64,000 bases of DNA from Escherichia phage ph0011. The notes under the pieces were generated by a model. That model had not been told where the DNA came from and ran no database searches. It saw nothing but the letters and a program-made list of their open reading frames with translations. The position numbers and the translations under genes are program-made. Of the stretch, positions 9,507 through 55,183 are shown piece after piece. Numbering within the stretch: position 1 is the first letter of the stretch; the number at the start of each line of letters is the position of its first letter. Location: the sequence record OP557969.1; one strand, 5' to 3'.

Positions 9507-10193
9507 ATGGCTACAATGCTTGATCGATATGGCGTGCCGCTGGCGGGTGGTGGTCGTATCTCTATGAAACAACCGAAAGCAAAATATAAATTTCGTGTCA
9601 TTTTCTTTGGTTTCGGAACTAATGATGATGGTAATATGATTACACTAGACACTAATACAGTAGGGGCAGTATCTGTATCACATGAAAACGTTACTGTTCA
9701 TAGTTACAACAGTTCTGCACATTATAAAGGTAAGTACACATGGGATACCATTGAAATTGCTTTCCGTGATTCTGTTGGTAACGCATCAGCAAAAGCATTA
9801 TATAACCAAATGCGTAAAGAATTTAACTACTACAGCCAAGAATCCCGTATGACTGATTCACAATTTAAATTCGAAATGTGGATTCAGGAACTGGATGGTT
9901 CGAATAGTGAAAATACTTCTAACCTTTTTGAAGGTACGTTGAGTACTTGGGTATGCCAAGGTTGCTTTATTGAATCAAGCAACTTTGGTGATTGGGATTA
10001 TTCATCTAGTGATGCTCAAGTTATTTCAATGACAGTACAACCTGATGGCTGTGCTAAATTGGGTCCAAACGGTGAAGCATTTGGTGATGAAGTTAGTGGT
10101 TTCGGTAATCCTTCTACTGCTACATCTATTTCTGGTGCACAAACCAATATCAGTAGCACTACACTACCTGATAGTAATTTCTATGAAAAATAA
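9507..10193 (+). CDS. tail tube protein (gp19-like)
   Basis: 228 aa; AGGAGA RBS; N-terminal motif YGVPLAGG...QPKAKYKFRVI shared with the next gene; position after sheath. Confidence 0.65.
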   Translation: MATMLDRYGVPLAGGGRISMKQPKAKYKFRVIFFGFGTNDDGNMITLDTNTVGAVSVSHENVTVHSYNSSAHYKGKYTWDTIEIAFRDSVGNASAKALYNQMRKEFNYYSQESRMTDSQFKFEMWIQELDGSNSENTSNLFEGTLSTWVCQGCFIESSNFGDWDYSSSDAQVISMTVQPDGCAKLGPNGEAFGDEVSGFGNPSTATSISGAQTNISSTTLPDSNFYEK

Positions 10194-10213
10194 TTTCATT
10201 TAAACTTAATATA

Positions 10214-10240
10214 GCCTCGAATCATTTCGGGGCTTTTTTT
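10214..10240 (+). terminator. terminator-like hairpin
   Basis: GCCTCGAA-TCAT-TTCGGGGC followed by T7. Confidence 0.45.
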
Positions 10241-10285
10241 ATGCTAAATAAAGTATAATACCTTAAAAAATATAAAGAGGTTGCT

Positions 10286-11062
10286 ATGGCAAATAACATG
10301 ATTAATAAATATGGGGTTCCTTTACCATCAGGGCGTAATAGATCTATGCTTCAACCAAAAGCAAAATACAAGTTTCGTGTTATTGTATATAATTTTGGAA
10401 CTGAAATAAATGAACGAGATCACATCGCACTAGATGTTGATAAAATTGACAGACCTACTGTTACATTTAGCACACATAAACTATATCAATTTACAACCAA
10501 TACATCATATATTGGAAGTCATGATTGGGAGCCAATTACTTTATCTATACGTGATTCTGTTGGTAACGCATCAGCAAAAGCATTATCAAGACAATTACAA
10601 AAACAACTAGACTTTCAACGAAGAATAACTCAAAGAAGGAATCATGACTATGGTTCATATAAATTCGGATTAGTTATACAAATGCTTAGTGGTCGCAATG
10701 CTGATGATACCTTGGATAATTTAGGAAGAGATACTTTAGTTGATGCATCTACCGCTGCAACAAATAATTCTGGTCTTGTCAATGCAGTTGACCAATTTAT
10801 TGGTGGTTCATCATATAATAGTGCAGGTGTAATGGAATACTTTGTTTTAACTGGATGTGTTATTCAAAACATATCATACGATTCTCTGGATTATAGTTCA
10901 AGTTCACCAGTTGAAATGGTTGTAACTATAAAACCAGATAATTGTATACAATTTGATAACATTGAAGAAATGTATAGTACCAGAATAAATTCACTTTTAC
11001 CTGAAAATGTCAATCAAGGGTTAGATATCATTGATCGTGTTTTTGGTAATGTTGGATTTTAA
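10286..11062 (+). CDS. tail tube paralog
   Basis: 258 aa; N-terminus YGVPLPSGRNRSMLQPKAKYKFRVI near-identical in pattern to the preceding tube protein; AAGAGG RBS. Confidence 0.6.
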   Translation: MANNMINKYGVPLPSGRNRSMLQPKAKYKFRVIVYNFGTEINERDHIALDVDKIDRPTVTFSTHKLYQFTTNTSYIGSHDWEPITLSIRDSVGNASAKALSRQLQKQLDFQRRITQRRNHDYGSYKFGLVIQMLSGRNADDTLDNLGRDTLVDASTAATNNSGLVNAVDQFIGGSSYNSAGVMEYFVLTGCVIQNISYDSLDYSSSSPVEMVVTIKPDNCIQFDNIEEMYSTRINSLLPENVNQGLDIIDRVFGNVGF

Positions 11063-11073
11063 GGAGGTGATGG

Positions 11074-12168
11074 ATGAGTGATTTTTTTGATTCATTTGTT
11101 AGTACTGGAACTGGTATAGTAGATGGAGTTATTGATAATATAAACATAGTAAATGATCCAGCATTCAAGAACTATAATGCGGCCCAGCGTGTTTTTGGAA
11201 CAGCAGGTGAAATGGGGTTCTCATTTTATAACTTACCAAAATTTAAAAATAGTTTTATAATAGAATTTGTATTAACTCCTTTCGCAAAGAACTTTATTAA
11301 AACACAATTACCAGATACACATACTGGCTTTGATGTTAATAATGTATCGTGTTTTGTGAAAGATGTGACGTTACCAAGCTTTTCATTCAATATTGAAACA
11401 GTAAATCAATATAACAAAAAGCGATTAGTTACTGGGGATATAGTTTATAAACCAAGTACTGTGGTTTTTTATGATACTGTAGATGGGGCTGGATACTTAC
11501 TACTGGATGCATATAGAAAGTTTTATTATGGGGATTTTTTTGATAAAAATCCACAATCATACAGAAATGATGTATTAAGTACACCTGACAACTTTAATGG
11601 ACTAGGTGGTAACTGGGGTCGTTCTGTTATGAATAATGGTAATTATGATAATCAGTACTTTTTCAAATCCATTAATATATATGAGATTGATAATGAGACA
11701 TATACTGTACATAATATGATAAATGTATTCATTGAAGATGTACAATTGGAAACAAAATCCATGGAAAGTGAAGCAGAACCTTCTATGATTACATTAACCA
11801 TGAGATATGAAGCATGTAACAACTTTGGTCCTGATGGGTATTTGAGCATTAGTGTTCCGTCGATGGAGATTGCTCATTTGATTACGAACACAGAAGGACT
11901 TGGTGTTAGTGGGTTTTTTAAATTTTTTGGTGAGTTAGATGATAAAACTGCCGGAATCACAACTGTTGGTAAAATTATCCGAGCAGGTACGGCAACTAGT
12001 GATATAATAAGCAGTGTTGATGATATATTGCGTGGGGATACTACACCTGATACAATTCGAAACATAGGTGCTGCTGTAACTAGGGGTTCTGATGCGATTG
12101 GATTTGGTAGTGTTGTGTCGGATGCAAGTTCTAAATTTGGACTTGGTAATATACTAGGAGATTTCTAA
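11074..12168 (+). CDS. tube-fold protein (tube initiator or baseplate-tube junction candidate)
   Basis: 364 aa; AAGGAGG RBS; C-terminal motif EPSMITLTMRYEACNNF parallels the C-termini of both tube paralogs. Confidence 0.45.
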   Translation: MSDFFDSFVSTGTGIVDGVIDNINIVNDPAFKNYNAAQRVFGTAGEMGFSFYNLPKFKNSFIIEFVLTPFAKNFIKTQLPDTHTGFDVNNVSCFVKDVTLPSFSFNIETVNQYNKKRLVTGDIVYKPSTVVFYDTVDGAGYLLLDAYRKFYYGDFFDKNPQSYRNDVLSTPDNFNGLGGNWGRSVMNNGNYDNQYFFKSINIYEIDNETYTVHNMINVFIEDVQLETKSMESEAEPSMITLTMRYEACNNFGPDGYLSISVPSMEIAHLITNTEGLGVSGFFKFFGELDDKTAGITTVGKIIRAGTATSDIISSVDDILRGDTTPDTIRNIGAAVTRGSDAIGFGSVVSDASSKFGLGNILGDF

Positions 12169-12210
12169 TAGCAGGATACTGTAATGTTTAGAATTAAATA
12201 TTGTTAAATG

Positions 12211-12218
12211 TATAAATT
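12211..12218 (+). promoter_or_regulatory. T4 late-promoter-like box (TATAAATT)
   Basis: TATAAATT 15 nt upstream of ATG 12233. Confidence 0.25.
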
Positions 12219-12229
12219 AAAAGGCATAA

Positions 12230-13240
<1,011 letters not shown>

Positions 13241-21753: not shown

Positions 21754-22347
21754 ATGACAAAGATTGAATTAGATGAAGCGATTAAAGGTTTATCTAATGT
21801 GTGTTTTAGTGGCGGGGCAGCAGGTGCTGACCGCCTTTTTTCTATCTATGCAAAAGATAATGGATTTGAAGTTGTTAATTTTTCATTTAAAGGTCATGAG
21901 CATAGTGTAGATGAAAATACTATATTAGAAATACCATCCAATATTCTATCTGATATTTCTATATTAAAGCAACTAAACATTGCATGTTACTCGTTGCAGA
22001 GAAAAGTACCAAAGCCTGGTTCTTATGTTTATAACTTACTTGCAAGGAATAGTTATCAAATACTTAATACAGAAAGAATATATTGTATTGCAAATATTAC
22101 ATCACCAACTAAGGTGAGTGGTGGTACTGCATGGGCAGTGCAGATGTACATGGATTCAGTTGAAAATCCTGAAATTTATTGTTATGATATGAATTCACGT
22201 TCTGTATTTTATTTTGACACAGTACTGAAAGAGTTTACTGAAACATTCTCAATACCAGAACCACACGGTAACTGGACTGGGATTGGTTCACGTAATGCTA
22301 CACAAAAACACATGGAACATTTTATTACATTTTTCAAGGAAGTATAA
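21754..22347 (+). CDS. SLOG/Rossmann-like protein (DprA/LOG-like glycine motif)
   Basis: 197 aa; FSGGAAGADR and later SGGTAWAV glycine-rich motifs; stop overlaps td start (TAATG). Confidence 0.4.
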   Translation: MTKIELDEAIKGLSNVCFSGGAAGADRLFSIYAKDNGFEVVNFSFKGHEHSVDENTILEIPSNILSDISILKQLNIACYSLQRKVPKPGSYVYNLLARNSYQILNTERIYCIANITSPTKVSGGTAWAVQMYMDSVENPEIYCYDMNSRSVFYFDTVLKEFTETFSIPEPHGNWTGIGSRNATQKHMEHFITFFKEV

Positions 22348-23987
22348 TGAAACAACTACAAGAACTATATCAAAAAATTCTAGATGAAGGCGTGGAAAGT
22401 GTTGACCGTACTGGTGTTGGTACAACCAAACTTATCGGTCAACAAATGCGTTTCGACCTTAACGATGGTTTTCCAGCAGTGACGACAAAACGTCTAGCAT
22501 GGAAAACAATGGTTGCTGAACTTTTATTTTTTATTAAAGGTATTCCAGACCGTCGAGTGATGCAGGAATTTTTACATGGTGAATTTAATGAAGATAAGAA
22601 CGATATTTGGAAAGGTAATTGTGTTGATATGAAAAATAAAAATCCATTAAAATTTAATGGATACAATTTAGGTAATATGTACCCAGTTTACTGGAGACGA
22701 ATGTATAAACCTGTTCCTAAAACAGTTAAAGTTAAACGTAAAAAAGACTTTGATTTTGAATATATTGAAAAATATAAATCATTTTATGATGATGTAGAAA
22801 TTGAAAAACATCATAAATCGGGTCAAACATTCATTGATATTAGGGGAGATGAGTTAGAATATCTTGGATTCAATGGACAGTATGAAAATAAACGACATTA
22901 TTTGAAATATAAGAACACGGGAACTATAATCAAACTCAATACATCTGAAATTGATATTAAACATAATAAACTTAATAGTGGTGAAGATTATTATAAAAAA
23001 AATTCAGTCGGTGGATATTTGGGTGCACCACGTGAAGTTCTTTCAAATGATCCATTGAACTCAAAAGTACAGAGCCTATGGTATAATATGCTTTCTCGTG
23101 TAAACACCTCTCCCAACTATAATAATATTAGTGTTAGCCCAAGGTGGTATAATTATTATAACTTCCTAACTGACATTCGTACTATACCACTGTTTTTTGA
23201 ATGGTTGGATGATCCAACATATTATGAATTAGATAAAGATTATTTTGGTTCATCTGTTTATTCAAGAAATACATGTACATTTTTACCCAAACATATCAAT
23301 CAAAAATTAATAAGAAAACGCAATGACTGTGCATTGGAAGTTGATGGAATACTTTATTATTCATTTACATGTTTTTATAAATCAATTTATGGTGGGAAAA
23401 CACAACCAAAAGATCCATTTACTTTTTTAGAAAATAACGGTCATACTTATATTATTCACGAAGAGACAGATGAATATGTATACCGTCCACAATTGTTTAT
23501 TGATCAATTAGAAACTGTTATTGAAAATATTAAACATGTCACCTTGAATGAAAATCATCCGGCTGGACGTAGATTGATTATGGATTCTTGGAATCCATCA
23601 TGGGAGGACGATTCAGTTCTGGGAATATGTCACCCATTTGTTCAATTCTTTGTAGTGAATGGAAAGCTGTCATGTGAGTTTTATATGCGTTCATCTGACA
23701 CATTTCTTGGATTACCACTGAATATATCATCATATGCATTATTGACGCACATGATTGCACAAATTACAGGTCTAGAAGTAGGAGAGCTAATTTACACTGC
23801 TGGTGATTGTCACATTTATAAAAATCACATTGAACAAGTAAAAGAACAACTACAACGAAAACCACGTGCATTACCTGAATTATGGATTGATCCTACTATT
23901 ACTGATATTGAAGATTTCACAATGGATTCTTTTAAATTGATTAATTACGATCCAATGCCAACAATTAAAGCACCGATGGCTGTATAA
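22347..23987 (+). CDS. td: thymidylate synthase (T4 Td-like) with about 260-aa in-frame insertion
   Basis: N-terminus DRTGVGT...GFPAVTTKRLAWK and C-terminus with catalytic Cys (ICHPFVQFF), DTFLGLPLNISSYALLTHM and PTIKAPMAV are ThyA-like; residues ~121-379 have no ThyA counterpart. Confidence 0.8.
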   Translation: MKQLQELYQKILDEGVESVDRTGVGTTKLIGQQMRFDLNDGFPAVTTKRLAWKTMVAELLFFIKGIPDRRVMQEFLHGEFNEDKNDIWKGNCVDMKNKNPLKFNGYNLGNMYPVYWRRMYKPVPKTVKVKRKKDFDFEYIEKYKSFYDDVEIEKHHKSGQTFIDIRGDELEYLGFNGQYENKRHYLKYKNTGTIIKLNTSEIDIKHNKLNSGEDYYKKNSVGGYLGAPREVLSNDPLNSKVQSLWYNMLSRVNTSPNYNNISVSPRWYNYYNFLTDIRTIPLFFEWLDDPTYYELDKDYFGSSVYSRNTCTFLPKHINQKLIRKRNDCALEVDGILYYSFTCFYKSIYGGKTQPKDPFTFLENNGHTYIIHEETDEYVYRPQLFIDQLETVIENIKHVTLNENHPAGRRLIMDSWNPSWEDDSVLGICHPFVQFFVVNGKLSCEFYMRSSDTFLGLPLNISSYALLTHMIAQITGLEVGELIYTAGDCHIYKNHIEQVKEQLQRKPRALPELWIDPTITDIEDFTMDSFKLINYDPMPTIKAPMAV

Positions 23988-45163: not shown

Positions 45164-48100
45164 TTACTTAACTATTAATATTTTTTGAATATCATTACCA
45201 CGAACTCGTAGACTGTTAGTATACACAGAAAGGTCTATTGTATAACTATTTTGAGTATAACGTTTAAACTTATCATAACCGCCCAAATTAATTCCGTTGA
45301 AAGAATATGTAGTATCATGTTTGAAATCGTGTTCTGCACTGTACATTACTCCACGGAGTAAGTTGTTTGTATTTCTAACTTCAACTTTTTCATATCCAAT
45401 CGATATAATGTCACTCTTGTTAGCAGCGGAGCCTGATAACACATTATTTCTAACATTATAATGGCTTACGGAAAGAGGTTGTGCTACATAAGTTGTGTTT
45501 TCTTCACTAATGGTTGTTATGTTAGTGATGGTAGCGTCAGCCACATCAATATACATACTATCAACCATTGGATATTCATACACCCACACACCTTCATTAT
45601 TTTTTGTCGGTTTGATATCTTTCGCATCATATTCAATCACGTTAATTTCTAAACAATCCGGCATTTTAGTTCTTACTAATTCACTAAGAACACCTTCCCC
45701 TGTAATTGGTAGATTATAACCGTTGTCTATAGTAATACCATCATCATTAAATATTTCATTTGATACAACCCAAACATCAACATCATCAGGTGTTACTCCG
45801 TCATTATACTTACCACCATTTAAAGTAGTATCATAAAAAACGTCATAATTAATCACATCAATGGTGTAATTTCTGTTTTGCTCATATAATTTAATATCAC
45901 CCTTGGTAAATTCTGGGTCAGCAAATGTTCTAACACGAACAATGTTCAATGCAAGATGTTGTACTGGCTGATTCAGTTGTCCAAGTGTGATGTTATCATA
46001 TCGAAGAACATTACCAGAACTATCAACCAACTCAATCGTTTCTTTTCCTGTAGTTCTTACAGTGAATAGAATAGGAGTTGTATTATGTTTGATATTAGAC
46101 ACACGTAATATGGTTTCCCATGTACGATTTTGATATCGAATAAAATCTTCACCATCCGGTGTGAAAATCATCACCTTATCACCATCAGATAAGTCACTGT
46201 CAACGATTTCAGCCTCAGTTAAGCTATTAATAGAACGTACACGATAGAAATATTTTTCTTCAAACGGTGATGCCGTTTTATTAATATCATGTTCAATCTT
46301 AGCATATGAAGGAATACTAACAATTGCTTCTGTATGTTTATATGGGTTGATAATTGCCATACCCTCGGTTTTATATCTGCTATTATTACGCAATTGCACT
46401 AGTGATTCAGTATCAAATCCATAACCATCAACAGTGAATCTAATATGCCCAACTGCACGACTAGCTGGATTTATTTCAGATATATCGATAATATAAGGAT
46501 CAACTTCATCATCTTTAACTTCCCATTTGATAGCTGAAGTTTGTGATTCTAATGCAAGGTTGTCAAATGCATTCATATCATTGAAGAACTTAGCTTCAGC
46601 AATACTATCAATTATATATTGATAATCCGAATACATAGGGTTATTTTGATCTTGTGGTAAATCATCTAGATTTATTTCAGCAAGTTTAATCATTTCACCA
46701 TTAGTAATGAAATAATCTTCCATGAAATCATCAATACTTTTATCATCTGGTATACTTTGGTATTCACCATTGATATTTAAGTAGACATGTTTTCTTGGCA
46801 TCATAGTAATAGCATAGATATCAATAGGTGTTTTTGAAAGAATTTCTTCTGCTTTTTCATACATATCAGCAGAGTCTTTATCAAACAACCCTCTCATGGC
46901 TGCCAGTACATGGACCGCATCGGAATAGAAACGTGTATCACCACCAATTTCATCATAACGATAAACATATACACCGTATTCAACTTCAAGTTTCACTTTA
47001 ATATCATGTTCAGATGCATCTGGATATTTTTCTGTAATAAAAGAAATATATTTTTCATATAATTCTTTACTTATTTCAAAATATCCATAGTTATAATCAT
47101 TACTTGAAGAAAAACCTAATGGTAGTCTAGTACTTGGGTTATCATTATAAACCAAACCACTAAATCCACAGCCAACCTCATCATGAATCTTATCATCACT
47201 GATATCTTTATAAAGTTTCAAACGGTTTGCTAATGTATTGTACTGAACATAGTGTCGAAGGTCAGTAAACATTTCATTATGCGTTGATTCGTTATAAATG
47301 CGTTCAAGTGTAGCAGTAAATTCATCAGTTGCTTCTAAATCATCAGCATGTTCTTTATACCACTGGTTTACACCATTTGCAGTTCCTAGTGTTACATCTA
47401 ATTCTGGATAGTACGTTTGTAATAGATACGCATTAACCAAGTCAAATGATTGTTCATTATACACAGGGTAAGAATATATATAACGTTGTAATTCATAGGT
47501 ATTAACAGAATCTTTTTCATTTGATTGATACTTATTATTAACACTAATCAACTCATTAATGTTTGCCAAATCTTTATTCGGTTTACATTGAATATTATCA
47601 TAATGCATAATAATATCAATTTCTTGAAATCTTCTATTTGGTGCAATAAAATCACTAGGCAGAGAACCTACTTTCTCCCATTTTTTAGTGGTTTCATTAT
47701 ATTGAGCGTACTCATAATCCCAAATATCCTTTTCAGTTTTAACCCACGAACCATCAACAAAAATATACCCATTAGGATCTAAATCATTACAAAGACCTTT
47801 GATTAAGTCATCATCAGACGTTTTTTGTTCTATCTGTGAACGGATTTTTGTACGATATGGTTTCACCTCTTCAAAGTACTCAACAATTTGGTTAATCAAA
47901 TTATCATTTGAATAGTTTTGTACCAAAGATTGTTCCAAACCAACAATATAGATATAGGATGTTTTAAATACCCAATCAACAACACCCTGTTCTACGTGTA
48001 CATATTTGACCATATCAAAAACAATTTCACTTTGGTGTAAATCGAAAGAATTTTTTAGCAAAGCAAGTGCTTTTCTAATATTAATTTCACGATTACTAAG

Positions 48101-51100
48101 TGAACCGTCCTCATTATGAACATTATAATCTACATAAAACAAATCGTTAAGCTCAATAGTACTACGTTGTCGCCCAATAGCTTTCCAATAAATTGAATCA
48201 CGTGATTGAGATTTGATATATAAAGTCCAAATGTTTTCACTATCTGTGACTCTAATTATATCACCAACTTGATAGTTTTTAGCATTTGCTTCTTCTAAAC
48301 TTATCTCTTGGATGTAAGCAGTTTTGCTATCATACCCAACATCATACCAATCTGCATAAGACCAGTATTGAGTCATATCTAATGATGTTCCGAGTGATTC
48401 AACATAATCCGATTGCTTAATCATTTTATGTTGTCCTTCACCTTTATTTTCTAAAGTTATAGTAACAACACTACCTGCATTAGCTGGACTATTCATTAAC
48501 TGAATATATCCGTTTTCATCGAAGTGAATAAAATAAACAGCACTAGTTGATAATGGAGTCGGTAGATAACCGCTAGAACTTAAAATAACAGCGTCATTTT
48601 CTTTAAATTTATCCTTTTCAACTGCAATTACAAGTTCATTATTATAAGTTAATACACGGAACGAAACCTCATTAGGGTTAACTTCTGTAGTTTTAACATT
48701 AAACACATCTTCCATAACAACACTATTAGTAGTTATGTTTTGTGATCTATAATAATTATTTGCACTTTCTACAAAGTTTCTACGTGCCTCTATTATATTC
48801 TGGAACCAAGTTTTATTAGAGCCTAAACCAGTGTCAACTTCTGGATATAATAAATCTACAACCTTACCTGACTTCGTAGTTTCTTGACCAATTAGAGAGT
48901 TCCACATAGAGTCCCAAATTAGTGGGTTAAAGTTGTAACTTTCACCCTCTTTGCAAAGTTGATATTGGTCATGTTTAACAACTTCTGTATTGTCCATATA
49001 GTAAGAAATAGTCAAAACACTAGTATCATCATTAACTTCAAACTGCATATTACTAAGAATAAAAGAGTTTTCATTAATTGGTGCGAACCAAGGAATGTTC
49101 AACTGTGATGGATCTTTAATAATACGTGCAATGTCAGTACATGATTTTGTTCTGGTATGAATAGGTGGTACATAAATTGTATCACGTACCCAGAAATAGT
49201 ATTTTGTTACATAACTGTCAGTGGAGCTATCATATTCCAAAAATGTACTATAATTATCTTCAAGTGCTGTTCCACTTGGAAGATACATATTATTATTTTT
49301 GTTTTTCTTAGCAACATCTTTACAGTACTTATCCCAGTTATATGGTTCTACTGGTGAACAAACCCATTCCAACACATCAATAGTACTATGTGGCAACAAA
49401 CGACCCCAGTTGTAACGTTTATATTCATTGGTTGCGTCAATATCAACATTTCCATCTGCATCATAAATGGCACGAGTATAATCCAAATAAAAAGCGGTGC
49501 TAGTGTTCCACCATACTTGACCAACTTTTTCAGCACCCCACGCCTGAACCAATTCGCCATTGCTATTATATTGAGCAGGGTCGATTGGTGAAGTATATGT
49601 TACGTTTTGCATTGCTGCACCAGGAATAACACCATTAATTGGGTCATAAACATTTAGATATAATGCAGTAATGTTTGTACGTTCATCATATGTAGTTGGA
49701 CGTTCAAACAAAGTACTTTGTGGTGCTTTAAAACTATATTTTTTATCAATATATGCTTGACGCTCTTCAGTACTCACAAAACGCGAAACATAACGATACA
49801 AACGAGGGCGTGTATCTGGGTCAGTAAATTCGATATTAATTGAAGTATCAAATGGAACCACCATAACTTTGGAATCATCCCCAGCAGTATAATATTGACT
49901 TTCTACTGTTAAAGTATCTGGCATAAAGTTAGTTTCGTCCACAAAATAATAGTAATCACCATCTTCAAGAGGGATATCATCAGATAGAGTTACTTTACAG
50001 AATTTCTCAGCGTAAACATCTGTGGTTTCGATTGGTGTAATAGAAACCATTTTAACATTAGTGTCAATTAATTCAAAAATGTTCCATAACCCATTTCCAT
50101 CTTTGAACATCCATACTGATTCAGGATTTTCACCTTTACCATTGATATACAACATACGGTCATTGAATGCAGTACTGAAATCTTTCGTAGTATAAGATAC
50201 TTCATCTAATGTAACTGGACCAATATCAGGCAGTTGGATGTGTTCACTTCTACCACTACGCATTGGGAAAGAGAATTTACCATTTGGACGAGTAATCCAT
50301 TGTGGGTCTTTTCCTTGTTCACCAAAGAATACAATATTGTTTCCATTACCATTTGATGTTGCATTTTCATCAAAAGACATCATTTGTGGCTGCTGCTTAA
50401 ATTGGTCATTAATCAATTTAAATTGAAGGTTTTTCTTTCCATCGATGTTACCATATGTACCAACTTTAAACGCCCATTCTTGTAATGCTTTATATTCATC
50501 AGTATCATAGGATTTAGAAACACGAAGAACACGTTCTAAAACTTGGTTTGTACCTTTGTCATGAATAAATCCTTTATAGAAATCAACACGACTTACATCA
50601 CTACTAATCATACGTTGTAGATAATCACGAGATTGATAACCAATCAAATGGCTAGACAATTCTTGTAATTGTACATCGCTAACGGGATGTTCATTGTCAT
50701 AGTAATGTTGAAAATCTGTTACTAGAGTTTCAAATGATGGTATTGTACCAGATTCCAAAATAATAAAACCAGGTGCTTGTAATCTACCAGTCCATGAACC
50801 AGTAATGTACCCATACATTTTAATTAGTTCCTGGATAGAACCATAAGTTGGTTGATAGATATAATCACCAAAAATAGTCTTATCATCAAATATAACAGCA
50901 TGTTCATATGAACACAAACTTAAGCGGATTAATGCAATACGCTTATTAGAATCGGTTGTTCTAACAGTGAATATATTACCAATACGTGAAGTTTCGATTT
51001 CATATTGACGAATACCTTGGTTATTATCATCAAGCAATGACCACACACCACCATTATTTTGTGTAATAGACTGTACTGAACCAAAATCCGAACCAAACTT

Positions 51101-54100
51101 AGCATTTGCAGCACTTGGTGTACAAGAGATAAATTCGCCAGTTACCAGAGGACTCTGACTCCATATCACAAAATCTTTAGCAATAGTGTGCCAATCTTGC
51201 TGAATACCATCTTGATTAACATCTTCGAAAATCCAGCCATGTTCTTTAAGATACTCACCATATCCACAAATAAAAGTGTATACTTCTTGATAACTATTGA
51301 AAATAGTCCCATATTCAATAGAAGCCTCAGACTTCCATTCATTATAATGAACAATATTACGGTTTTCCAATTTAAGAGTTACTTTTCTTCCATTTTTTAC
51401 TGGAAGTTTATATTTAAATTTCGCACCAACCAAATCATATCCATCAATTTGATATGCACTACCATTCCATGTAATTTTGATGGCACTCATCTGTTCATCG
51501 CGAATGTTATTCGAACGCACCAGACCAATCGTTTGGTTTTCTTGTGAAATAAGACCAAATGATTTAGCGTTGAATGTTAATTGATCTGCTTTAGTAAAGC
51601 CACCAATTTTATGTCCCACATTTACGTAAGACGAACGTACAACATCTCCATATTTTGTAGTAATATTTTTATTTTGATACATCAAATAATCACTAACAAA
51701 CATTTGATATCCAATTGTTCTTGTGTTATCTTCACCATGAACAGTTGTGTTTTTATCAAAATTCACACGATTGCGGGTATCCCCGTACAGAAATTGTTCA
51801 CCAGTGGTGATAATTTCTTTCAAATTGTCATTACGGGTATCCCAATAATAGTTGGCAAATTGTGCAGGTTTAGCTTTATACAAAAGTAACATTTGGTCAT
51901 ATGCAAACAATGTGGTGTTCATATACGTAAATTCCATATCACCCATGTCGCCATACGCCCAAGGTTCTGCTCGGTGAACTAAAGATCCAGACACTAATCC
52001 TAAAACTTCAGGAGCAATATACTCAACCACACAAATATCTACACCGGATGATGTTTTATTTCCAGTTTTAGTAATTTTAAATGGTTGTACACCAAATCTT
52101 TTATATTTGTCATACTGACCACGGCGGTCGCCATATAAAATTGTCCCAGTACTACTATCGCCGATTGTATCATTTACATCCCAAAGTCCACTAGGAACCA
52201 AATCACCTTGTTCATCAGTTACAAGTGCCTCATATACATAAACTACATCACCATCACGTTCACCAACTTGGACAGCGGTTGGTTCATACTCTTGGTTCCA
52301 CCAAGTAGGACGTTGTGTAAACCCAAACATTTCCCATGGATGTGTAGCAGGGCGATATGTACCATATTGATCAGTATAGATTGCACGCCATGAACCACGA
52401 GCAGGAATTTCAGTACTTTTACCATCAACAACATAATAGGTTCCAGTATAGTTCCATGTTCTCCAGTTATTAGGATCATAATCATGTGTACTATTACTAA
52501 TACCATTAGATGCAGTGAAGTTAATATAACCACGTAATAGAAGTGTTTGTTTTTCTTCTGCACTATATTCAGTTTTTGTAAAATATGGTGTAGGGAAAAG
52601 ATCATCACTATTCAATACAGGGACATAATCAACATCTTTGAATTTATTGTCAATACTATTGAAAATTCTATTTTCAAGTTCATATACAACATCATCCATT
52701 TTATCAACACCATTGATAACACGGTATGCTTTAGAAATAATACCAGTATGGCTGATATTATAATAGCTAGGTTTACTACCAGCAGTTAGGAATGTTGCTT
52801 TCTCAGGAACGTATGCTTGTAGAATACCTAAAAACTGTGGAGTTGGTGGTATAAATGCACGAATAAGACCAGATGTACTACCCACATTGTCATAATAGAA
52901 TGGGAATGAACTATCACGACCCATATTAATAGTTGCCAAAATAGAATCAACGATGTTAGCTGCACTATTTTGTAAAAAGTTAGTTGGGTTTTCATTGTAC
53001 ATTCTAAGCATTTGTGTATTAAATTTATTAATGAATCTGAAATATTCAGATTGCATAAACATAGTTGCTTCAAATAAATCAATATCTTCATTTGCAGTAT
53101 GAGCCATCAATGGGAGCATAGAAGCTTCATTTTGAATAATTTTAGTTCCTACTCCATTATTCACTAATCCCTTAGCTAAACGTTCTTCATAATCGTTGAA
53201 GTCATCAGCATAACCACTAGTGATATTCTGTTGAATAATATCCTGAAAATGAAGAGTATAGTCTCCTTGATTAATATATATAATATTGGAGTTATATGGG
53301 TTATTTTGTAAGTTAATTGGAACTTCATATGCACCTAATTCTTTATCAGGTGTTACAGTACTGCTATAAGTTCTAATTTGAATAACAGAATCATCATCCA
53401 ATTCAACACTGTTATCGATTGTGATACTTTGCACTTGACCTTTTAATACATTCTTGGTATATTTGGAGATATTAACACCATCAACAACAACTTCAATAAT
53501 ATCAGAGTCATTGTCTAAAACTTTTTGTGCCAATTCAAAAGTATGGTCATATTTTAAAACCTGAATACCATCACCACTAATTTGATGCCAGTCCAAATAT
53601 GTTTCACGTTCAGCTTTATAGTACTGATATGTTTTATCAACTTCGATGACATATGCATACATACCCTCGACTGGTTCTTTAAACAGTTCCATATCATAAA
53701 CAGAACTAAAGACTCGATACATATCAGTACGTTTGACTTGAGGTGTCTGTTTTACAAATTGTTTAGAGAATTCTTTTGAACGCACCCAATCAGTTTGAAG
53801 ATTCATTTTATTATTTTCATCAATGATGTTATAATAATACAAACCACCGATTTCAACTTCAACACCAAGATGGTCATATGTATAACGTTGTGATTGTAAA
53901 AAGTTTTCATAAGTGTAATAGTTATAATCACCAAGTTCAATGTTATACCCATATACACTATCAGCCGCGTAGTTATAGTTGATTTTAAATCCAAATAATG
54001 GTGAACCTTTAAATGTACTGGATGGGTACGTGGTGCTGTTATCTAGTTTGATTCCATTACGATCATAAAGTTGGAATTGAGGAAAGACGTTAACACTTGG

Positions 54101-55165
54101 CTTCGCCTGTGCACGAACCCATAATGTTCCATTCCAATACATAGAATTATTGCCGTACTCATTTCCTTTTGTGACCAAAACTACGTCACCATTTTGTGGT
54201 TCACCACTTGGACGGGACTCAGTTTCTTCATTTGGATCTAGTGCTAAGCCATAAACGCGTGTACCATCTTGCATTTTTTTAACATACACTTTATAAATTC
54301 TATTGTTTTCACCATCATTACCAATACTGGTGAATAGAATACGCATACCATCTTGTGGAATAATACCATCAATGCGAATACCGCTATTGACATCTTTTTG
54401 AATAATATCTTCAGGTTTGATACTATCAGAAAAAAGTTCAACTGTTCCACGGAATTTTGTACCGTAGTTAATTAGCTCGATATTTTTATTATATTCGATA
54501 ATTGGTGCACGAGCACGAATAAAACGAGAATCTTGCATTAGCTCTTCAGTCAAGATAGAACCGTCTTCTAGTGTTTCACCTAAAGTATACCAAAAGTTTT
54601 GCAAAGACCATGTATTACCATTAAGTGCTCCACGTTCCATTACAATGTAATCAGGTGTAATGATATTATAAGAGTTTTTGGTATCCCAAAGATACGAACT
54701 AAAATTGTTCATTTTATTTGGGTTAATTGCAGGAGTCCATGCATAAAACTTACCGTTAAATAAACGACTTTCATTATCGGTTAGTGCTCCGTAATGACTC
54801 ATGTATCCAACAAGATCATCATAAAATTGAATTGAACGAATTGTTGAATCATCATTTTTAGAGACATAAGCAGTGGACAACTGATATAGTTGACGTGCAA
54901 CAGAACTTTCATGCAAGAAGATATTACCAGCGGCAGCCGGAGAACCCATGTCACCAATATAACCGTCAACCAATTCGTTTTCAGCCGGATTAAACCATTG
55001 TTGAATAACATCATCACTGACTTTTTGAATATCTTCTAAGCCTTGCATCCACTCAGGCAATCTTTTGATAAAAAGCTTTTTCTGTACTGCTTCAGCCATC
55101 TGTGTAGGTTGAAACTTAAAATTATTAGTCATTTTTTCTGGACTCCATATAATTCGTTCATTCAT
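45164..55165 (-). CDS. giant virion protein, 3333 aa (baseplate-associated by synteny; function unknown)
   Basis: Uninterrupted 10-kb frame in an AT-rich genome; ATG 55165; directly downstream of gp6-like gene in the baseplate operon; no motif recognised by eye. Confidence 0.8.
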   Translation of the reverse strand: MNERIIWSPEKMTNNFKFQPTQMAEAVQKKLFIKRLPEWMQGLEDIQKVSDDVIQQWFNPAENELVDGYIGDMGSPAAAGNIFLHESSVARQLYQLSTAYVSKNDDSTIRSIQFYDDLVGYMSHYGALTDNESRLFNGKFYAWTPAINPNKMNNFSSYLWDTKNSYNIITPDYIVMERGALNGNTWSLQNFWYTLGETLEDGSILTEELMQDSRFIRARAPIIEYNKNIELINYGTKFRGTVELFSDSIKPEDIIQKDVNSGIRIDGIIPQDGMRILFTSIGNDGENNRIYKVYVKKMQDGTRVYGLALDPNEETESRPSGEPQNGDVVLVTKGNEYGNNSMYWNGTLWVRAQAKPSVNVFPQFQLYDRNGIKLDNSTTYPSSTFKGSPLFGFKINYNYAADSVYGYNIELGDYNYYTYENFLQSQRYTYDHLGVEVEIGGLYYYNIIDENNKMNLQTDWVRSKEFSKQFVKQTPQVKRTDMYRVFSSVYDMELFKEPVEGMYAYVIEVDKTYQYYKAERETYLDWHQISGDGIQVLKYDHTFELAQKVLDNDSDIIEVVVDGVNISKYTKNVLKGQVQSITIDNSVELDDDSVIQIRTYSSTVTPDKELGAYEVPINLQNNPYNSNIIYINQGDYTLHFQDIIQQNITSGYADDFNDYEERLAKGLVNNGVGTKIIQNEASMLPLMAHTANEDIDLFEATMFMQSEYFRFINKFNTQMLRMYNENPTNFLQNSAANIVDSILATINMGRDSSFPFYYDNVGSTSGLIRAFIPPTPQFLGILQAYVPEKATFLTAGSKPSYYNISHTGIISKAYRVINGVDKMDDVVYELENRIFNSIDNKFKDVDYVPVLNSDDLFPTPYFTKTEYSAEEKQTLLLRGYINFTASNGISNSTHDYDPNNWRTWNYTGTYYVVDGKSTEIPARGSWRAIYTDQYGTYRPATHPWEMFGFTQRPTWWNQEYEPTAVQVGERDGDVVYVYEALVTDEQGDLVPSGLWDVNDTIGDSSTGTILYGDRRGQYDKYKRFGVQPFKITKTGNKTSSGVDICVVEYIAPEVLGLVSGSLVHRAEPWAYGDMGDMEFTYMNTTLFAYDQMLLLYKAKPAQFANYYWDTRNDNLKEIITTGEQFLYGDTRNRVNFDKNTTVHGEDNTRTIGYQMFVSDYLMYQNKNITTKYGDVVRSSYVNVGHKIGGFTKADQLTFNAKSFGLISQENQTIGLVRSNNIRDEQMSAIKITWNGSAYQIDGYDLVGAKFKYKLPVKNGRKVTLKLENRNIVHYNEWKSEASIEYGTIFNSYQEVYTFICGYGEYLKEHGWIFEDVNQDGIQQDWHTIAKDFVIWSQSPLVTGEFISCTPSAANAKFGSDFGSVQSITQNNGGVWSLLDDNNQGIRQYEIETSRIGNIFTVRTTDSNKRIALIRLSLCSYEHAVIFDDKTIFGDYIYQPTYGSIQELIKMYGYITGSWTGRLQAPGFIILESGTIPSFETLVTDFQHYYDNEHPVSDVQLQELSSHLIGYQSRDYLQRMISSDVSRVDFYKGFIHDKGTNQVLERVLRVSKSYDTDEYKALQEWAFKVGTYGNIDGKKNLQFKLINDQFKQQPQMMSFDENATSNGNGNNIVFFGEQGKDPQWITRPNGKFSFPMRSGRSEHIQLPDIGPVTLDEVSYTTKDFSTAFNDRMLYINGKGENPESVWMFKDGNGLWNIFELIDTNVKMVSITPIETTDVYAEKFCKVTLSDDIPLEDGDYYYFVDETNFMPDTLTVESQYYTAGDDSKVMVVPFDTSINIEFTDPDTRPRLYRYVSRFVSTEERQAYIDKKYSFKAPQSTLFERPTTYDERTNITALYLNVYDPINGVIPGAAMQNVTYTSPIDPAQYNSNGELVQAWGAEKVGQVWWNTSTAFYLDYTRAIYDADGNVDIDATNEYKRYNWGRLLPHSTIDVLEWVCSPVEPYNWDKYCKDVAKKNKNNNMYLPSGTALEDNYSTFLEYDSSTDSYVTKYYFWVRDTIYVPPIHTRTKSCTDIARIIKDPSQLNIPWFAPINENSFILSNMQFEVNDDTSVLTISYYMDNTEVVKHDQYQLCKEGESYNFNPLIWDSMWNSLIGQETTKSGKVVDLLYPEVDTGLGSNKTWFQNIIEARRNFVESANNYYRSQNITTNSVVMEDVFNVKTTEVNPNEVSFRVLTYNNELVIAVEKDKFKENDAVILSSSGYLPTPLSTSAVYFIHFDENGYIQLMNSPANAGSVVTITLENKGEGQHKMIKQSDYVESLGTSLDMTQYWSYADWYDVGYDSKTAYIQEISLEEANAKNYQVGDIIRVTDSENIWTLYIKSQSRDSIYWKAIGRQRSTIELNDLFYVDYNVHNEDGSLSNREINIRKALALLKNSFDLHQSEIVFDMVKYVHVEQGVVDWVFKTSYIYIVGLEQSLVQNYSNDNLINQIVEYFEEVKPYRTKIRSQIEQKTSDDDLIKGLCNDLDPNGYIFVDGSWVKTEKDIWDYEYAQYNETTKKWEKVGSLPSDFIAPNRRFQEIDIIMHYDNIQCKPNKDLANINELISVNNKYQSNEKDSVNTYELQRYIYSYPVYNEQSFDLVNAYLLQTYYPELDVTLGTANGVNQWYKEHADDLEATDEFTATLERIYNESTHNEMFTDLRHYVQYNTLANRLKLYKDISDDKIHDEVGCGFSGLVYNDNPSTRLPLGFSSSNDYNYGYFEISKELYEKYISFITEKYPDASEHDIKVKLEVEYGVYVYRYDEIGGDTRFYSDAVHVLAAMRGLFDKDSADMYEKAEEILSKTPIDIYAITMMPRKHVYLNINGEYQSIPDDKSIDDFMEDYFITNGEMIKLAEINLDDLPQDQNNPMYSDYQYIIDSIAEAKFFNDMNAFDNLALESQTSAIKWEVKDDEVDPYIIDISEINPASRAVGHIRFTVDGYGFDTESLVQLRNNSRYKTEGMAIINPYKHTEAIVSIPSYAKIEHDINKTASPFEEKYFYRVRSINSLTEAEIVDSDLSDGDKVMIFTPDGEDFIRYQNRTWETILRVSNIKHNTTPILFTVRTTGKETIELVDSSGNVLRYDNITLGQLNQPVQHLALNIVRVRTFADPEFTKGDIKLYEQNRNYTIDVINYDVFYDTTLNGGKYNDGVTPDDVDVWVVSNEIFNDDGITIDNGYNLPITGEGVLSELVRTKMPDCLEINVIEYDAKDIKPTKNNEGVWVYEYPMVDSMYIDVADATITNITTISEENTTYVAQPLSVSHYNVRNNVLSGSAANKSDIISIGYEKVEVRNTNNLLRGVMYSAEHDFKHDTTYSFNGINLGGYDKFKRYTQNSYTIDLSVYTNSLRVRGNDIQKILIVK

Positions 55166-55183
55166 TTGATTTATTTATTAGAT

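Follow-up and report, generated by a model that had tools for sequence, protein, structure and literature searches.

Paralogs of the tail tube protein that start or cap the tube are established for bacteriophages T4 and phiKZ. The T4 tube terminator gp3 is a paralog of the tube protein gp19, so that T4 has four tube-fold proteins in all (PMC12929629). For the jumbo phages closest to the one described here, the first RaK2 paper did not identify the tube and proposed gp106/gp107 for this role from their size, abundance, and β-strand propensity, and the RefSeq record of phage 121Q names gp552, gp553, and gp554 each as "tail tube protein", as several recent GenBank records do for theirs; no published work giving the three proteins separate roles was found. 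Here we analyze a 64,000-nucleotide stretch of Escherichia phage ph0011 (sequence record OP557969.1; hereafter the window), in which positions 9507–12168 hold exactly three successive plus-strand open reading frames (ORF1, ORF2, and ORF3) downstream of a tail sheath gene. The region from 6400 to 12700 is 89.5% identical in DNA to Escherichia phage UE-S1 over its full length and about 87% identical to 121Q, PBECO4, and about 30 more Asteriusvirus-type jumbo myophages, with weaker DNA matches in Klebsiella, Salmonella, Erwinia, Yersinia, Cronobacter, and Xanthomonas phages; because of these identities the window is, as judged by sequence, a piece of a jumbo phage genome of the RaK2/121Q type, about 350 kb in size. 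The original prediction for this segment was that all three reading frames encode tube-fold paralogs, and homology, profile, and fold matches now make it nearly certain that all three have the Hcp/gp19 fold. An array of this kind is an ordinary trait of a known group of phages and had been annotated before. As for the roles of its members, the arrangement that we favor as a whole, with ORF1 as the tube and ORF2 and ORF3 as low-copy rings at one end of it, has in our judgment an even chance of being correct.

ORF1 and ORF2 align over their full length with 31% identity (E = 4e-33), and they have in common the N-terminal motif that had been claimed for the pair (RYGVPLAGGGRISMKQPKAKYKFRVI in ORF1 and KYGVPLPSGRNRSMLQPKAKYKFRVI in ORF2). 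Between ORF1 and ORF3, BLASTP returned a single 24-residue match (E = 0.005) located precisely at a C-terminal motif; between ORF3 and ORF2, it returned nothing significant. This C-terminal motif, said to be common to all three proteins, does occupy the same columns of the profile alignment in ORF1 (AQVISMTVQPDGC), ORF2 (PVEMVVTIKPDNC), and ORF3 (PSMITLTMRYEAC), although ORF1 lacks the first proline of the motif as it had been written. When an alignment of the ORF3 family (A1; 45 sequences) was compared by hhalign with one of the tube family (A2; 25 sequences, paralogs from six phages), the two matched with a probability of 97.7% and E = 1.7e-12 across 165 columns, with ORF1 residues 17–189 set against ORF3 residues 49–255. 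Hidden Markov models of the families, used in both directions against the 207 ORFs of the window, matched only ORF1–3 (8.8e-8, 2.6e-5, and 6.8e-5; next best about 0.1). Among the PHROG families, ORF1 (1.4e-85) and ORF2 (7e-78) fall in phrog_4542, "tail tube protein", and ORF3 falls in phrog_13438, which carries the same name (1.6e-219), with additional matches to phrog_4542 (1.2e-6) and phrog_45 (6e-4). The latter family, which ORF1 also matches weakly, contains T4 gp19, gp54, and gp3, and the T4 gp19 sequence matches phrog_4542 at 5e-10. T4 gp48 belongs to phrog_230, which is matched by none of ORF1–3. Pfam, including its T4 gp19 tube family, gave no match to ORF1, ORF2, or ORF3 at E ≤ 1; solved structures searched by sequence with the single proteins and both family profiles gave chance matches only, and hhalign of both family alignments against single T4 gp3, gp19, gp48, gp54, gp15, gp2, and gp27 gave nothing.

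The predicted structures of ORF1 and ORF3 have the β-sandwich and flanking helix of the tube fold and superpose on solved tube proteins. The ORF1 model (predicted local distance difference test, pLDDT, of 72) matches best T4 gp3 (14.3), gp54 (13.7), and gp19 (12.9), followed by tubes of injection systems and phages. In the AlphaFold2 model of ORF3, residues 56–272 form a core with pLDDT of 70–90 that matches Hcp (9.3), gp54 (9.2), gp19 (8.8), and gp3 (8.8). An unrelated fold of the third protein, which would have refuted the prediction, can be set aside, because the ORF3 core matches these four proteins; ORF2, for its part, shares 31% identity with its paralog ORF1. Foldseek searches against viral models returned a mixture of tube proteins, "baseplate tail tube" proteins, and gp3 proteins, so role was not separated; one ORF3 match was the NCTC12673 "Gp19 tail tube protein II". 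The three proteins had been compared with T4 gp19, gp48, and gp54, which do share a fold, but that list omitted gp3, which matches equally well in structure, and a one-to-one mapping onto gp19, gp54, and gp48 is not demonstrable by sequence or fold. The contrast drawn with dispersed T4 genes also holds only in part, as genes 48 and 54 are adjacent and gene 19 comes next after gene 18.

ORF1 is very probably the major tail tube subunit, because it follows the sheath gene, is better conserved than ORF2 and ORF3, is nearest to the single-copy tube genes of relatives, is present in three of three virion proteomes, and is bracketed by terminator-like hairpins. Identity to 121Q is 98% for ORF1, 96% for ORF2, and 91% for ORF3, and identity to RaK2 is 80%, 72%, and 76%, respectively; the single-copy tube gene of PA5oct is closer to ORF1 than to ORF2 or ORF3. 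Published virion mass spectrometry, which supports orthologs of all three as virion proteins, detected those of ORF1 in CBB, GAP32, and RaK2, those of ORF2 in GAP32 and RaK2 and not in CBB, and those of ORF3 in CBB (9 peptides) and not in GAP32 or RaK2. ORF1 would be expressed from its own unit, with terminators on both sides, and would stack as hexameric rings inside the sheath to form the tube. RaK2 and CBB have hairpins with other stem sequences at both matching positions, behind the sheath gene and behind the ORF1-type gene, and PA5oct has one behind its single tube gene. In all, four lineages keep the hairpin position behind the ORF1-type gene; the UE-S1 and G17 records have two terminators annotated in the ORF1–ORF2 stretch. 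Behind the ORF1 hairpin, ORF2 and ORF3 are separated by 11 nucleotides with no hairpin between them, and ORF3 has a strong AGGAGG ribosome-binding site 6 nucleotides upstream of its ATG, a layout that fits lower-copy ORF2 and ORF3 products. These two genes would be co-transcribed past the ORF1 terminator, and their products would be low-copy ring formers that prolong one end of the tube.

Beyond the RaK2-like phages, the conserved block consists of a gp13-like gene, a deoxynucleoside monophosphate (dNMP) kinase gene, the sheath gene, the tube gene or genes, an ORF3-type gene, and a gp4-like gene. A single copy of the tube gene is found in RsoM2USA, in a distant metagenomic contig, and in PA5oct, where gp197 precedes the ORF3-like gp198; RaK2-like phages and Vibrio phage 2.275.O have two copies, and Salicola phage SCTP-2 has three. 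In a neighbor-joining tree, the ORF1 and ORF2 clades (100% bootstrap each) group with the Vibrio copies, and the single-copy tube genes lie outside this group with 70% support. Because of this branching, the ORF1/ORF2 duplication is, on the evidence of the tree, lineage-specific and inside the RaK2-like/Vibrio branch; ORF2 would have arisen by duplication of the tube gene in the RaK2-like branch, in an event possibly shared with a Vibrio phage. An ancestral duplication, which the tandem arrangement had been thought to reflect, is therefore not what separates ORF1 from ORF2; the only old split is that between the tube type and the ORF3 type. Since the ORF1/ORF2 duplication is recent, the tandem layout is no evidence for the ancestral state of T4-like phages, and it is typical of this jumbo-phage clade. 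Genes 447–450 of SCTP-2 (7004–10528 of locus L005) encode tube paralogs of 215, 260, and 259 residues and then an ORF3-like protein of 408 residues, with a gp4-like gene one gene beyond; this array exceeds that of the window in size and, judging from the tree, probably expanded independently. RsoM2USA gene 355, which comes next after the tube gene, was considered as ORF3-like and rejected by profile.

For ORF2, a place on the baseplate side of the tube appears somewhat more probable than all other locations taken together. T4 gp3 makes its head-side contacts through its N-terminal segment and loops 117–121 and 145–150 and its baseplate-side contacts through a long loop, 45–65, and loop 97–105 (PMC12929629), and the N-loop of one ring has been reviewed as contacting mainly the β2–β3 loop of the next ring (PMC8718954). 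When the gp3 contacts were mapped via gp19 onto ORF1, through weak alignments, the head-side elements corresponded to residues 1–22, 130–143, and 160–171 and the baseplate-side elements to residues 56–80 and 107–121, an assignment that agrees with the reviewed contact. With polarity transferred from T4 gp3 in this way, the clades of ORF1 and ORF2 share an identity of 0.45 in the head-side elements, 0.15 in the baseplate-side elements, and 0.39 elsewhere, and the baseplate-side elements are conserved inside each clade (0.85 and 0.70). The difference between head and baseplate elements has p < 5e-5 by random permutation and is reached by 5 of 185 circular shifts; for a T4 control of this asymmetry, the pairwise alignments of gp19, gp3, and gp54 were too noisy for use. 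ORF2 retains the N-terminal loop of ORF1 (52% identical), the DYSSS loop, the RDSVGNASAKAL segment, and the loop equivalent to ORF1 residues 130–143, apart from an insertion of about 35 residues in the last; it also has a distinct C-terminal tail. Because the head-side surface is kept and the baseplate-side loops are replaced, ORF2 would lie directly under the first ORF1 ring, for which its own ring would provide a tube-like landing surface, the role of gp54 in T4.

Weighing against this placement, the ORF2 insertion sits in a loop assigned to the head side, the polarity depends on T4 gp3 contact loops carried through low-identity alignments, and ORF2 orthologs were found by mass spectrometry in the virions of two phages, so that rarity is not required. 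As a separate observation, made by eye, the C-termini of ORF2 (11003–11059) and ORF3 (12136–12165) types carry a short glycine-rich hydrophobic tail (...DRVFGNVGF in ORF2 and ...KFGLGNILGDF in ORF3), whereas ORF1 types instead end in DSNFY; in the ORF3 family, G358 of this tail is nearly invariant and G362 invariant. The tail may be a shared docking peptide.

For ORF3, the chances that it is the tube initiator are evenly balanced. Its ring would join the hub to ORF2 or, where ORF2 is absent, directly to the tube, in the role of an initiator or of gp48/gp54. To its tube-fold core are added a 55-residue N-terminal and a 90-residue C-terminal extension of low model confidence, and in its size and its disordered extensions ORF3 resembles gp48 and gp54; such extra segments on a tube-fold core, which anchor it in the baseplate, are expected of a junction protein, and ORF2 for its part has the insertion and distinct tail described above. 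The ORF3 family is present wherever the module is found, including relatives with a single tube gene, and is near-universal in the clade. Searched against 1.84 billion proteins, its profile recovered 1951 representative clusters at E ≤ 0.001, with lengths from 209 to 1310 residues, a conserved core, and highly variable C-terminal extensions. After the profile was widened to 150 diverse representatives, the best T4 match was gp54, marginally (E = 0.034 in a searched set of about 37 sequences; hhalign E = 0.023), with gp48, gp3, and gp19 at E of 1.7–2.3. The adhesion-type C-terminal domains (discoidin and N4-type sheath) of a long family member are also counted towards an initiator role. A search of 98 kb of 121Q, which takes in its neck, tail, and baseplate modules, brought up no further tube-like gene, and when ten unknown structural genes close to the 121Q baseplate genes were scanned against PHROG, none fell in a tube family. 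This long member of the ORF3 family, P0156 (1310 residues; metagenomic contig L011, 7139–11071), begins with the tube-fold domain, and its C-terminus holds a pair of F5/8 type C (discoidin) stretches along with a "non-contractile tail sheath N-terminal" (N4-type) domain; its gene lies 1.4 kb downstream of a contractile sheath gene, with no ordinary tube gene between.

Several observations speak against ORF3 as initiator. It has no surface asymmetry relative to ORF1, it adjoins the gp4-like head completion gene, and it does not match the gp48 family phrog_230. Whereas T4 genes 48 and 54 neighbor the hub, the three genes here are part of a sheath–tube module, with about 30 kb and a change of strand between them and the baseplate cluster. 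What the analysis shows is the homology and fold of the three proteins, their gene order, the positions of the terminators, and the asymmetry of conservation; we infer hexameric rings, copy numbers, a polarity transferred from the published T4 gp3 contacts, and a stacking order of hub, ORF3, ORF2, and ORF1.

The position of ORF3 beside the head completion gene raises the alternative, which we regard as unlikely though it deserves attention, that ORF3 is a tube terminator and counterpart of gp3, capping the last ORF1 ring and contacting an enlarged gp15-like protein; ORF2 alone would then be the initiator-side ring, and the hub-proximal junction protein would be encoded elsewhere and have escaped recognition. 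In all relatives examined, the gp4-like gene does follow closely on the ORF3-type gene, T4 gene 3 is near gene 4 and the dNMP kinase gene 1, with a dNMP kinase gene flanking the module here too, and a gp19-like gene directly precedes gp4 in Campylobacter phage CP220. However, the T4 transcription order of 4, 2, 3, 1 is the reverse of the order here, which amounts to adjacency and not colinearity, and ORF3 has 364 residues, with extensions variable in length, compared with 176 for gp3. Resemblance to the tube is no greater in the baseplate-side loops of ORF3 than over its remaining sequence, PA5oct-like phages would require an undetected initiator, and a dedicated tube terminator has been described as special to T4 (PMC12929629). 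That the terminator is instead ORF2, with ORF3 as initiator, seems improbable: a terminator is expected to keep tube-like baseplate loops and change its head side, and ORF2 shows the opposite in both its loop identities (0.15 compared with 0.45) and its well-kept N-loop. This proposal would nonetheless account for ORF2 standing nearest to the tube among the paralogs, a relation like that of gp3 to gp19, for its absence from some relatives, which fits an optional terminator, and for the 35-residue insertion, which in a head-side loop could block further stacking.

The recovery of ORF2 orthologs from GAP32 and RaK2 virions could also mean that ORF1 and ORF2 co-polymerize along the tail in mixed rings or mixed hexamers, which we consider very unlikely, as we do the variant in which mixed hexamers or a defined run of ORF2 rings take the place of a single adaptor ring. 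ORF2 retains the N-loop and RDSVGNASAKAL segment of ORF1, CP220 virions hold two gp19 types, and an Hcp2–Hcp3 heterohexamer of the type VI secretion system (9vnd) is among the structural matches. Yet the terminator that parts ORF1 from ORF2 keeps its position among relatives, the inter-ring hairpin of ORF2 has diverged, relatives with a single copy make tails without ORF2, and ORF2 was not detected in the CBB virion. If the tube were built of two proteins, the ORF2 insertion would alter the outer surface of part of it, and the altered surface could anchor, for example, the tail "hairs" reported for CBB and relatives. Finally, it is hardly credible that none of ORF1–3 is the tube and that RaK2 gp106/gp107 (121Q gp617/gp618) form it, with ORF1–3 as adaptor rings. 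This follows the proposal of the RaK2 authors, and the CBB orthologs of the two proteins had 91% and 56% peptide coverage; against it, gp617 and gp618 are phrog_9326, unrelated to tube profiles, and are encoded near capsid genes, whereas ORF1, encoded next after the sheath, shows the tube fold of the T4 type and belongs to the family that T4 gp19 matches. We rejected gp106/gp107 as the tube for want of any relation to tube profiles. In 121Q, gp617 and gp618 (22063–23366 of locus L010, outside the window) are adjacent paralogous virion proteins of 24.3 and 20.9 kDa with no assigned function, and their abundance in published proteomes is very high. CBB_112, a "major tail protein", was also rejected as the tube, as it matches only the immunoglobulin domain of lambda gpV. 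The features of the locus are listed in Table 1.

Table 1 Features of the sheath–tube module in the window.
Feature	Position	Strand	Size	Assignment	Supporting match
Tail sheath gene	6454..9117	+	887 residues	Tail sheath	Pfam Phage_sheath_1C 1.6e-14; phrog_10581 "tail sheath" E = 0
Hairpin with T-run	9124..9145	+		Terminator-like; just 3' of the sheath stop codon	
ORF1	9507..10193	+	228 residues, 25.1 kDa	T4-type tube-fold protein; most likely major tail tube subunit	
Hairpin with T-run	10213..10234	+		Terminator-like; 3' of ORF1, parts ORF1 from ORF2/ORF3	
ORF2	10286..11062	+	258 residues, 29.0 kDa	Lineage-specific ORF1 paralog; proposed minor ring under the tube	
ORF3	11074..12168	+	364 residues, 40.2 kDa	Remote tube-fold paralog; proposed initiator or baseplate–tube junction, alternatively terminator	
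gp4-like gene	12233..12652	+		T4 gp4-like head completion protein	Pfam Tn7_TnsA-like_N 3.4e-17; phrog_218 "head closure" 5.8e-40

The orthologs of the sheath gene in 121Q and RaK2 carry a tail sheath annotation, and a gp4-like gene is downstream of the ORF3-type gene also in 121Q, RaK2, CBB, SCTP-2, and the metagenomic contig L012. The spacer between the sheath gene and ORF1 (9118–9506) is unusually long, with 389 nucleotides here and 395 in 121Q compared with 121 in RaK2 and 106 in CBB, and contains a 48-codon ORF (9202–9348) without a Pfam match. The exact 10-mer AATATAAAGA has only two copies in the 64 kb, both on the plus strand, one upstream of ORF1 (9471–9480) and one upstream of ORF2 (10269–10278), at differing distances from the ATG. 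Matches to the T4 late-promoter motif TATAAATA are far fewer in the window than expected (1 compared with 10.5, standard deviation 3.2), despite a gp55-like late sigma factor being annotated in 121Q, and was rejected as the promoter of these genes. No Rfam family matched anywhere in the window.

Upstream of the module genes in the table, a 664-residue ORF (3369–5363, plus strand) has repeated "..ERYG.." units and matches Pfam DUF7487 (2.7e-39). It corresponds to RaK2 ORF039, a "possible homing endonuclease"; 121Q lacks it and has a short gene at that site, between the gp13-like neck gene and the dNMP kinase gene, and in PA5oct a "Hef-like homing endonuclease" lies between the sheath and tube genes. 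The 664-residue ORF has the look of a mobile endonuclease gene, carried by the module in some phages and missing in others. Elsewhere in the window, a single ORF of about 3,330 residues (45167–55174, minus strand) lies between a gp6-like baseplate wedge gene and a ClpA-like gene and corresponds to 121Q gp582, labeled "virion structural protein".

The practical value of these assignments is in annotation, as three genes now share one label and the tube went unidentified in the first genome papers of the clade (RaK2, 121Q, GAP32, CBB, PA5oct, and many uncultured relatives). Separating the major tube from six-copy adaptor rings would aid model building from cryo-electron microscopy and the engineering of these therapeutic-candidate phages. 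ORF1 and ORF2 would also be a clean natural case of subfunctionalization, in which one stacking surface was kept and the other replaced after duplication. The current understanding of contractile tails is unchanged by these findings.

The closest counterparts of the array, 121Q gp552–554, the PBECO4 genes, RaK2 ORF042–044, GAP32 199–201, and CBB 205–207, are the same three genes in the same order, likewise placed between the sheath and gp4-like genes, with no essential difference. The likeness to T4 lies in the proposed logic of one abundant tube protein with six-copy tube-like end rings (PMC12929629, PMC8718954) and in the match of gp19 to the ORF1/ORF2 family profile. In contrast, T4 has its four tube-fold genes at three genomic places, whereas the three genes here form one tandem array; one-to-one orthology is not detectable, the Pfam T4 gp19 family is not matched, and ORF2 is a recent duplicate without a T4 counterpart. 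In the Photorhabdus virulence cassette (PVC) and antifeeding prophage (Afp), tube-like paralogs also cap or start the tube. These systems (Pvc1/Pvc5/Pvc7 and Afp1/Afp5/Afp7) are bacterial particles and not phages, and their initiator has a LysM domain, which a Pfam scan did not find in ORF1–3. In phiKZ, which is of a different phage lineage, the genes of gp30 (tube), gp88 (tube initiator), and gp182 (spacer) are scattered over the genome. The T4-related Campylobacter phages CP220 and CPt10 resemble the locus described here in having several gp19 homologs, one of them directly upstream of gp4, and two types in virions, but differ from it in that the paralogs are dispersed over the genome and the sheath gene is multiplied too.

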